From Escherichia phage vB_EcoM-CHD16UKE1: a stretch of DNA of 64,000 nucleotides. This document shows, piece by piece, positions 36,280 to 37,619 of the stretch (positions are counted from its first letter, which is position 1; each line of letters starts with the position of its first letter). The DNA lies in sequence record MZ234030.1. One strand, written 5' to 3'. The notes below the pieces were generated by a model that searched no databases, had not been told where the DNA came from, and saw nothing but the letters and a program-made list of their open reading frames with translations. The translations under genes were made by a program, and so were the position numbers.

Positions 36280-36840
36280 ATGATTAATAAAATTGTACAT
36301 GAAATGGCTTTAAACGGAGATTCATATAAAATATCTGCCGTAGTTGAAAATTTCATACTTAATAAAGTAAAAGAATATTTCACTGATTGTTCAGTTAGTT
36401 ATCAAGAAAAAATGGTTTTAACCGATGATACTGAAAAATCAAATAATTTGTTTTGTTCTAATTTTATAACTAAGAAGCGTACTAGAAGATTTGATATTGT
36501 TATTTCTCGCAACGGTAAAAAGCATATAATTGAAATTAAACACCAAGTTGGTGGAGGTACAGCTATTGATTCGGTTGGAATATATTTAGAAGATAAAGAG
36601 AAATTAAAAGAATACACAAAAACTGAAAACCCTGTGTCATTGATGATATTAGATTTTTTGCCATGCGGATATTATCCACGTAATAAATGGACAAAAAGAG
36701 AATCATTTACTGATAATCCAACCATCCAAGCAAGGTTTAATGAATATGCTAAATCACAAAACGTGTTAGTATTACTATCAAATACATATGATGAAGAATT
36801 ATATAATTCGTTTTTTGCTGCAATAAATGAGAGAATATAA
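36280..36840 (+). CDS. hypothetical protein with PD-(D/E)xK nuclease-like motif (186 aa)
   Basis: ORF track; [18 protein letters not shown] (D ... E-x-K) preceded by helix with Glu; stop overlaps dam ATG (TAATG). Confidence 0.45.
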
Positions 36841-37619
36841 TGCTAGGAGCTATCGCGTATACAGGTAATAAACAGTCATTATTACCTGAACTTAAGCCTC
36901 ATTTTCCAAAATATGACAGATTCGTGGATTTATTTTGTGGAGGTTTATCAGTGTCTTTGAACGTCAATGGTCCTGTATTGGCCAATGATATTCAAGAACC
37001 AATTATTGAAATGTATAAGCGTCTTATTAATGTATCATGGGATGACGTATTAAAAGTAATAAAGCAATATAAACTATCAAAAACATCAAAAGAAGAGTTT
37101 TTGAAATTACGTGAAGATTATAATAAAACTAGAGATCCTCTTTTACTTTATGTTCTTCATTTTCACGGGTTTAGTAATATGATTCGTATAAACGATAAAG
37201 GAAATTTTACTACTCCGTTTGGAAAAAGAACTATAAACAAAAATAGTGAAAAACGCTTTAATCACTTTAAACAAAATTGTGATAAAATAATCTTTAGTTC
37301 ATTGCATTTTAAAGATGTCAAAATTCTAGACGGCGATTTTGTATATGTGGACCCTCCATATCTTATAACAGTTGCTGATTATAATAAATTTTGGTCAGAA
37401 GAAGAAGAAAAAGACCTTTTAAATCTTTTAGATTCTTTAAATGACAGAGGAATAAAATTTGGACTGTCGAATGTTTTAGAGCATCACGGAAAGGAAAACA
37501 CTCTTCTTAAAGAATGGTCTAAAAAATATAATGTTAAGCATCTTAATAAAAAATACGTCTTTAACATATATCATTCCAAAGAAAAGAATGGAACTGATGA
37601 AGTATATATTTTTAATTAA
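36840..37619 (+). CDS. dam: DNA adenine methyltransferase Dam (259 aa)
   Basis: ORF track; motifs FCGG (AdoMet) and DPPY (catalytic); length matches T4 Dam. Confidence 0.85.

Follow-up and report, generated by a model that had tools for sequence, protein, structure and literature searches.

A 64,000-nucleotide stretch of the genome of Escherichia phage vB_EcoM-CHD16UKE1 (sequence record MZ234030.1; hereafter the window) carries, immediately upstream of the methyltransferase gene dam, a 186-aa open reading frame (ORF) whose product is very probably a protein of restriction-endonuclease fold that is genetically coupled to dam. We further propose that the two genes form a functional pair of the restriction-modification (R-M) kind, a reading to which we assign a probability of roughly 0.55. 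The two genes are located as follows.

36280..36840, plus strand: 186-aa ORF with ATG start (phrog_8706), a small PD-(D/E)xK restriction-endonuclease-like protein under purifying selection
36840..37619, plus strand: dam, a D12-class GATC N6-adenine methyltransferase whose start overlaps the stop of the 186-aa ORF (TAATG)

The final A of the ORF's stop codon (TAA, 36838-36840) is also the first base of the dam start codon (ATG, 36840-36842). This overlap was described in an initial annotation of this DNA, which had also proposed that the two genes constitute a nuclease-methylase pair. The dam product strongly matches D12-class/Dam models (Pfam PF02086, 6.5e-51; TIGR00571, 1.4e-69), and E. coli genomes contain no relative of the gene at the DNA level. 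Across this region Escherichia phage vB_EcoM-PM123 is 100% identical, and several hundred Tequatrovirus (T4-like) genomes match at 95-100% identity.

Linkage to dam is the strongest result of the analysis. In all nine independent contexts the ORF lies directly upstream of a Dam-class (D12) methylase gene and touches or overlaps it, and the pair occupies three genome positions, namely between genes 61 and 56, between denB and a topoisomerase gene, and next to rIIA, so that the proposed pairing is upheld at the level of the genes. The order gene 61, small reverse ORF, 186-aa ORF and dam seen in the window recurs in MX01 (Dhakavirus, 64% identity), L014 (63%), L015 (59%) and L004 (57%). Klebsiella phage KPV15 (Jiaodavirus, ∼44%) shows a 7-nt overlap of ORF and dam, and here the pair lies downstream of rIIA-rIIB-denB and upstream of the topoisomerase gene; in the metagenomic T4-like contig L003 (∼30-39%) the overlap is 20 nt and the pair sits directly upstream of rIIA. 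The ORF likewise overlaps the Dam gene in L002 and L007. Among phage records, 147 of the roughly 154 that bear the ORF have it contiguous with dam at the megablast level and ∼350 further records have dam without the ORF, and no ORF without an adjacent dam was found in any context examined. As in type II R-M systems, the genes are adjacent and inherited together, the nuclease-like gene in these contexts never occurs without the methylase, and the methylase alone is common. Identity to the window drops in parallel for the two proteins, from 64 to 38% for the ORF and from 76 to 54% for Dam, with the nuclease-like protein evolving the faster of the two, as is usual for R-M pairs.

The 186-aa ORF is a real gene under purifying selection and no chance reading frame: even homologues of only 29-32% identity have it uninterrupted, and pairwise dN/dS (the ratio of nonsynonymous to synonymous substitution rates) between homologues is about 0.2-0.4, with dS near saturation. 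It defines PHROG 8706 (E 6e-116), a family labelled “unknown function”, and tblastn finds it intact in 154 records of Escherichia, Shigella, Yersinia, Salmonella, Serratia and Klebsiella phages including T2; among distant homologues (63, 59, 57, 49, 41, ∼32 and ∼29% identity) the reading frame is uninterrupted in all. About 30% of sequenced relatives carry the ORF, T2 among them. An exhaustive HMMER search of 1.84 billion cluster representatives returned 11 proteins; these are the phage family or fragments of it plus P0016 and P0017, which are long and repetitive and which we regard as spurious. A further profile search, built with more divergent members and run on 5.8 billion proteins, brought in nothing new, and neither search found bacterial relatives that would anchor the family to a characterized R-M system. 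Every family member with genome context sits in a T4-like phage, and NCBIfam models gave only noise against the ORF. All but one of the 60 GenBank entries inspected annotate the ORF as a “hypothetical protein”, the other being misannotated as a “capsid protein”; that entry is a T2 record in which the ORF is called “head outer capsid protein”. Full-text literature searches found no published description of the gene. Type II-like R-M and virus-encoded R-M are already known as kinds of system; what appears to be undescribed is the ORF family itself, along with its very small size, its restriction to T4-like phages and what it implies about where T4 Dam came from.

An AlphaFold2 model built on a seven-sequence alignment (predicted local distance difference test, pLDDT, 79.1; predicted template modelling score, pTM, 0.79) comprises helices at residues 2-11, 15-33, 95-102, 106-113, 147-160 and 172-185 and strands at 38-47, 67-77, 80-88, 119-124 and 163-167, and has the alpha-beta-beta-beta-alpha-beta core of the PD-(D/E)xK (restriction endonuclease-like) superfamily. 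The putative active site consists of E23 on the first long helix, D72 on strand 2 (67-77) and E85-x-K87 on strand 3 (80-88), that is, the acidic strand-2 residue and conserved (D/E)-x-K on strand 3 that mark the superfamily. These four residues are invariant in nine family sequences with identities down to 29%, as are H88-Q89. The initial annotation had recognized the spacing of a PD-(D/E)xK core in the peptide VENFILNKV (aa 22-30) and in a D/E-x-K peptide (aa 70-87), both of which are present, and the predicted fold and the invariant residues agree with it; the Asp and the E-x-K are where it saw them, while the distance that it gave as about 14 is 13 residues from D72 to E85. The positions concerned are the following.

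36346..36348, plus strand: E23 codon, helix 1, invariant and aligned with the invariant DpnII E152
36493..36495, plus strand: D72 codon, strand 2 (RFDIVI), invariant and aligned with DpnII D201
36532..36540, plus strand: E85-I-K87 codons, strand 3 (IEIK), with E and K invariant and E85 aligned with DpnII E214
36556..36573, plus strand: G93-T-A-I-D-S98 codons, at the N-terminus of the helix after strand 3 (95-102), invariant in nine sequences and a candidate DNA-recognition element

Foldseek identified MunI as the only target covered end to end (template modelling, TM, scores 0.59/0.56), with EcoRI also among the matches, together with the restriction enzymes BstEII, PfoI, Bse634I, PspGI, BsoBI, NgoMIV, Cfr10I and AgeI. 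The family profile had no match at E<=10 among PDB chain sequences. The size and conservation of the protein bear on the proposal that it is a catalytically dead relic serving as a DNA-binding regulator of dam expression or as a Dam accessory subunit that alters the extent of methylation. Four catalytic positions that stay invariant at 29-64% identity would be unexpected for a dead enzyme, and at 186 aa the protein is as large as a complete minimal type II enzyme such as MunI (∼200 aa), which aligns over its full length. Conversely, the ORF product is far smaller than DpnII, the gene is dispensable in T4, and T2, which has the ORF, reportedly methylates more extensively than T4, an observation ascribed to Miner and Hattman in 1988. 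On balance we consider a dead relic very unlikely.

Several profile matches, all weak and sub-threshold, link the ORF to the catalytic core of the GATC-cutting DpnII/MboI family. The best Pfam family for the window ORF is DpnII (PF04556; E 0.0045, 16.8 bits), with query residues 28-113 on positions 152-235 of the 278-position profile, and the same family ranks first for four of the eight members scanned singly, the other three being P0009 (8.3e-5, 22.5 bits), P0004 (9e-4) and P0002 (2.4e-3); it is not the best family for P0005, P0006, P0011 and P0013. The PADLOC REase_II model PDLC03548, which is a DpnII model in that DpnII itself matches it at 8.5e-127, detects the window ORF at 9e-5 and its 63% homologue P0004 at 5e-6. 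Alignment of the phage family to 19 DpnII-family sequences by hhalign gave one hit (P 4.6e-4, probability 33%), which pairs RRFDIVI with KRFDFVI, the peptide around E23 with NGRKNRTGDAMENIV and the peptide around E85 with LIEVNFYSGSGSKLN. In this alignment E23, D72 and E85 fall on the invariant DpnII residues E152, D201 and E214 with identical spacings of 49 and 13 residues. The score of 33.1 compares with 15.1 +/- 2.7 (maximum 26.1) for 200 column-shuffled DpnII alignments, none of which reached it (0/200), and with 15.1 for the reversed DpnII alignment. The ORF starts where the DpnII core starts, matching profile positions ∼140-235 of 278. Comparison with the PDB neighbours of a DpnII model singled out no DpnII-specific structural link. 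The starting S. pneumoniae DpnII sequence matches PF04556 at 2.7e-100, is 99% identical to database protein P0018 and is matched 100% by a fragment entered as “type II restriction enzyme DpnII [Streptococcus pneumoniae]”; the comparisons that followed used database sequences only. The ORF is not a member of the DpnII/MboI family as curated, and on these profile alignments a distant relationship to the DpnII/MboI catalytic core is probable but unproven. Another PADLOC model, PDLC03569 (REase_II, 205 positions), matches DpnII residues 95-286 at 1.9e-29 and the phage homologue P0009 weakly (0.004), which hints that it might represent a naturally shorter group of DpnII-related enzymes bridging both families.

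The same fold would also serve an active PD-(D/E)xK nuclease whose task does not involve unmethylated GATC, such as degradation of cytosine-containing host or plasmid DNA in the manner of EndoII/EndoIV, structure-specific repair or recombination, or cleavage of Dam-methylated host DNA by DpnI logic with the phage shielded by glucosylated hydroxymethylcytosine (glucosyl-hmC). The non-restriction nucleases Can2, McrC, Bax1 and VC1899 are among the fold matches, the link to DpnII is sub-threshold, the KPV15 pair adjoins denB, and host GATC is methylated, so a methyl-dependent enzyme would have an obvious target. Such a job leaves unexplained, however, the constant coupling to dam at three positions and the co-divergence of the two genes, and among the structural matches the best one over the full length is a classical type IIP enzyme. 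The 186 residues contain no winged-helix domain of the kind that reads methylation in DpnI, nor any other methyl-reader domain, and DpnI is missing from the top 60 fold matches of the model. The profile and structure searches called for by the initial annotation thus yielded a restriction-endonuclease-like fold and sub-threshold DpnII matches, with no specific support for the DpnI-like logic that it had listed as one option. We regard a nuclease with some other job as unlikely.

The history of the locus in T4 provides a further line of evidence. In T4, dam and 61 are separated by 310 bp that carry no annotation. The T4 sequence follows the window as far as 36212 and resumes at 36753, with an 8-bp overlap that falls on two ATCACAAA copies.

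36205..36212, unstranded (alignment): left ATCACAAA copy, 8-bp direct repeat at the T4 deletion junction
36753..36760, unstranded (alignment): right ATCACAAA copy, 8-bp direct repeat inside ORF codons 158-161
36213..36760, unstranded (alignment): 548-bp segment missing in T4, comprising the early promoter and codons 1-158

The T4 junction reads ...TATTTATCGCAAAACGTG... and is followed by a remnant of the ORF, codons 159-186 (28 codons) with a 1-nt frameshift; some relatives keep the remnant unframeshifted. T4 has therefore lost the ORF through a 548-bp deletion by recombination between short direct repeats, and the long allele is ancestral, making T4 dam a deletion derivative of the pair. Examination of T4 and its relatives at this position, as the initial annotation had advised, found the ORF in T2 and about 30% of relatives and a 28-codon remnant in T4; of the options that it had offered, a remnant or relative of the R-M system behind phage Dam is the best supported, given the weak DpnII-family matches and the derived state of T4 dam.

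The T2 copy (L011 1501..2046) encodes 181 aa with changed last residues and ends 13 nt before dam, with no overlap. The 1988 T2 dam record M22342 contains the ORF, unannotated; two tblastn pieces are needed to cover it there, which suggests a frameshift or sequencing error. Miner and Hattman are said to have described, in 1988, a ∼536-bp insertion 5' of T2 dam relative to T4 and without homology to it. Comparison of the two alleles turns this polarity round, the change being a loss in T4.

The T4 allele also bears on a selfish origin, in which the ORF acts like a homing endonuclease gene that cuts the dam-61 region of ORF-less phages and spreads by repair during co-infection, with the link to dam reflecting hitch-hiking. 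Presence/absence polymorphism at one locus (about 30% of relatives positive) and the different position of the cassette among genera would suit such a gene, and T-even genomes are full of free-standing homing endonucleases, with T4 segF only two genes away. What the “empty” T4 allele shows, however, is no intact target site: it arose by deletion and retains 28 codons of the ORF and a repeat-mediated junction. Moreover, the ORF and dam move together, the ORF never alone (9/9). Known T-even homing enzymes are of the GIY-YIG or HNH type, another fold, and we know of none with the PD-(D/E)xK fold. We consider a homing gene very unlikely.

Candidate expression signals around the ORF are the following.

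36226..36254, plus strand: putative T4-type early promoter TTTACT-N14-TGGTATTAT, 26 nt upstream of the ORF start
36268..36272, plus strand: Shine-Dalgarno-like GAGGA, read from the sequence, 7 nt before the ORF ATG
36688..36717, plus strand: best regional sigma-70-like match by consensus, TGGACA-18-GATAAT, in the 3' end of the ORF

The T4 early-promoter consensus combines a GTTTAC -35 element with an extended TGgTAtaAT -10 element. The pattern TTTACW-N14-TGGTAYWAT has 11 exact copies in the window, 11/11 on the plus strand, against 0.01 expected by chance, a statistic that is generous because the pattern was written post hoc from the hits seen. The early promoter at 36226..36254, which the initial annotation had already assigned to the ORF and which is one of these 11 copies, is credible because of the strand bias and the agreement with the known consensus. 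The copies start at 1378, 4352, 12331, 26604, 36226, 38907, 46215, 51397, 55892, 56399 and 59540 (all plus strand); several share longer identical stretches, for example TTTACAAGACTGTTC at 1378, 26604 and 56399 and acaactatca downstream of those at 1378, 26604, 55892 and 59540, which suggests duplicated early-promoter modules. A generic sigma-70 scan showed no excess over chance (11 found vs 12.5 expected) and is uninformative in AT-rich DNA; the site at 36688..36717 is a possible separate promoter for dam. We did not adopt the “promoter” annotated in the Lutter record, which overlaps the ATG, as the archetype at 36226 fits better, and a MotA-box middle promoter (TTGCTGA...TATAAT at 36263-36279) was rejected for its wrong spacing.

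Two further genes lie upstream of the pair, and gene 56, encoding dCTPase, is the next gene after dam in plus-strand order.

34955..35983, plus strand: gene 61, primase (ORF list, Pfam)
35980..36180, minus strand: 66-aa ORF between gene 61 and the 186-aa ORF (phrog_2024)

The 66-aa reverse ORF is conserved and hydrophobic (phrog_2024, E 4e-31), overlaps the gene 61 stop by 4 nt and, unlike its early-gene neighbours, is encoded on the opposite strand. Annotations of it exist for T2, MX01 and Lutter (“similar to RB69ORF029w”), and T4 DNA has it intact, though it is missing from the NC_000866 feature table; its probable product is a small membrane protein, with expression from the late strand. 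Inside it, between gene 61 and the early promoter, is a terminator-like hairpin at 36146..36165 (plus strand; ATGGCAT-loop-GTGCCAT followed by a T run), which could insulate the ORF-dam unit against read-through from gene 61. On the other side, between gene 56 and soc (window 38198..38398, 38620..38865), there is a 66-aa ORF where T4 has the GIY-YIG homing endonuclease gene segF (L001 1107..1781), so that, on the two sides of the dam-56 block, the polymorphism between T4 and the window phage runs in opposite directions.

An R-M-like cassette is the simplest model that unites the fold, the invariant active site, the putatively DpnII-like core, the strict coupling to a GATC methylase and the loss of the nuclease with retention of the methylase in T4, and no rival accounts for the invariant dam linkage as well. 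Under this model we predict that the ORF product is a small PD-(D/E)xK endonuclease akin to type II restriction enzymes, dependent on Mg2+ and probably a homodimer. Its gene would be transcribed early, from a T4-type promoter of its own, with translation coupled to that of dam, and T4-like phages would inherit and relocate the two genes together. Unmethylated GATC would be the most likely target (DpnII/MboI logic), and a GATC-specific, methyl-sensitive nuclease is a tentative assignment that we place somewhat short of even odds. Dam, as the antidote, and glucosyl-hmC would protect the phage's own DNA while the nuclease attacked GATC-unmethylated DNA in the infected cell, such as that of co-infecting phages, plasmids or under-methylated DNA, and the “orphan” dam of T4 would be the same cassette after microhomology-mediated loss of the nuclease gene. 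Nuclease activity, GATC specificity, methyl sensitivity and biological target are thus what we infer from the combined evidence. Under a second-order Markov model no other 4-bp palindrome in the window is nearly as depleted as GATC (66 observed vs 210 expected, observed/expected 0.31; next is TCGA at 0.60), which is compatible with long exposure to a GATC-directed activity.

A number of observations weigh against this model. No family member reaches the PF04556 gathering cut-off of 23 bits (22.5 at best, 16.8 for the window ORF) and three members have no hit to that family, the two most distant members P0011 and P0013 and the KPV15 protein have no DpnII match at all, and the hhalign probability for the DpnII link is only 33%. 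The N-terminal ∼140 residues of DpnII have no counterpart in the ORF, which therefore departs from the full-length architecture of ∼280 aa, in which an N-terminal helical region precedes the C-terminal catalytic core. GATC depletion is not specific evidence because it has also been described for other enterobacterial phages. The gene is absent from T4 and about 70% of relatives and is therefore dispensable. In an E. coli cell, whose DNA Dam has already methylated, a DpnII-like enzyme has no obvious natural target. T-even glucosyl-hmC DNA, which carries ∼0.4% N6-methyladenine, resists 94% of tested type II enzymes (PMC7653180).

With host DNA methylated and phage DNA carrying glucosyl-hmC, plausible targets are under-methylated foreign DNA or, if modified cytosine is tolerated, Dam-less rival T-even phages. 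A bolder proposal, which we think unlikely, is that the cassette is a phage-versus-phage weapon whose nuclease would cut GATC free of N6-methyladenine even in the hmC or glucosyl-hmC DNA of Dam-less T-even co-infectors, with Dam as the immunity gene. Were it true, it would explain the long-puzzling retention of Dam in T4 (immunity kept, weapon lost) and would represent the first restriction enzyme evolved for hypermodified DNA from inside a virulent phage.

T2 and T4 Dam has been a model methyltransferase for decades and is treated as a textbook orphan of unclear role in the phage. If the R-M-like reading holds, dam is the downstream half of a conserved nuclease-methylase cassette in T2 and about 30% of sequenced T4-like phages, the T4 version is a datable deletion derivative of that cassette, and the reason for Dam in T-even phages becomes testable via its partner nuclease. 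The ORF would found a new and very small (186 aa) family of restriction-enzyme-like proteins, possibly GATC-specific, and the pair would be a rare R-M-like module in a virulent phage with hypermodified DNA.

The T4 orphan is one known system for comparison, being the same dam gene; the PADLOC orphan-methyltransferase model PDLC03722 matches the window dam at 1.6e-183. Unlike in T4, dam is not solitary in the window phage, T2 and about 30% of relatives, and the T4 state is secondary. DpnII and MboI cut unmethylated ^GATC, and their partner is the Dam-class methylase DpnM. Both DpnII and the ORF product have a PD-(D/E)xK core in their models, the helix-E, strand-D and strand-E elements align at identical spacings in the low-probability hhalign match, and both have a partner methylase of the D12/Dam class, phage Dam and DpnM (the methylase of the DpnII cassette) being 27% identical (E 3e-17). 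In contrast, DpnII has E-V-N where the phage ORF has the canonical E-x-K, the last ∼90 residues of the phage ORF do not align, the DpnII gene order is M-M-R whereas the phage order is R then M with overlap, and the phage family is found only in T4-like phages. MunI is similar in size (∼200 aa vs 186 aa) and aligns structurally over its full length, although it recognizes CAATTG and, at 12% identity, shows no detectable sequence relationship. The other restriction enzymes matched by fold belong to the same structural class as MunI (EcoRI-like alpha-class type IIP), whose members leave a 4-5 nt 5' stagger, like ^GATC cutters. Viruses that carry a nuclease with its cognate adenine methylase include the chloroviruses, with R.CviAI/M.CviAI (^GATC), and phage P1, with EcoP1I. 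The host GATC of the window phage is already methylated and its own DNA hypermodified, so its target must differ from theirs; the chlorovirus CviAI pair shares the specificity of Dam and DpnII and serves against non-self DNA inside infected cells.
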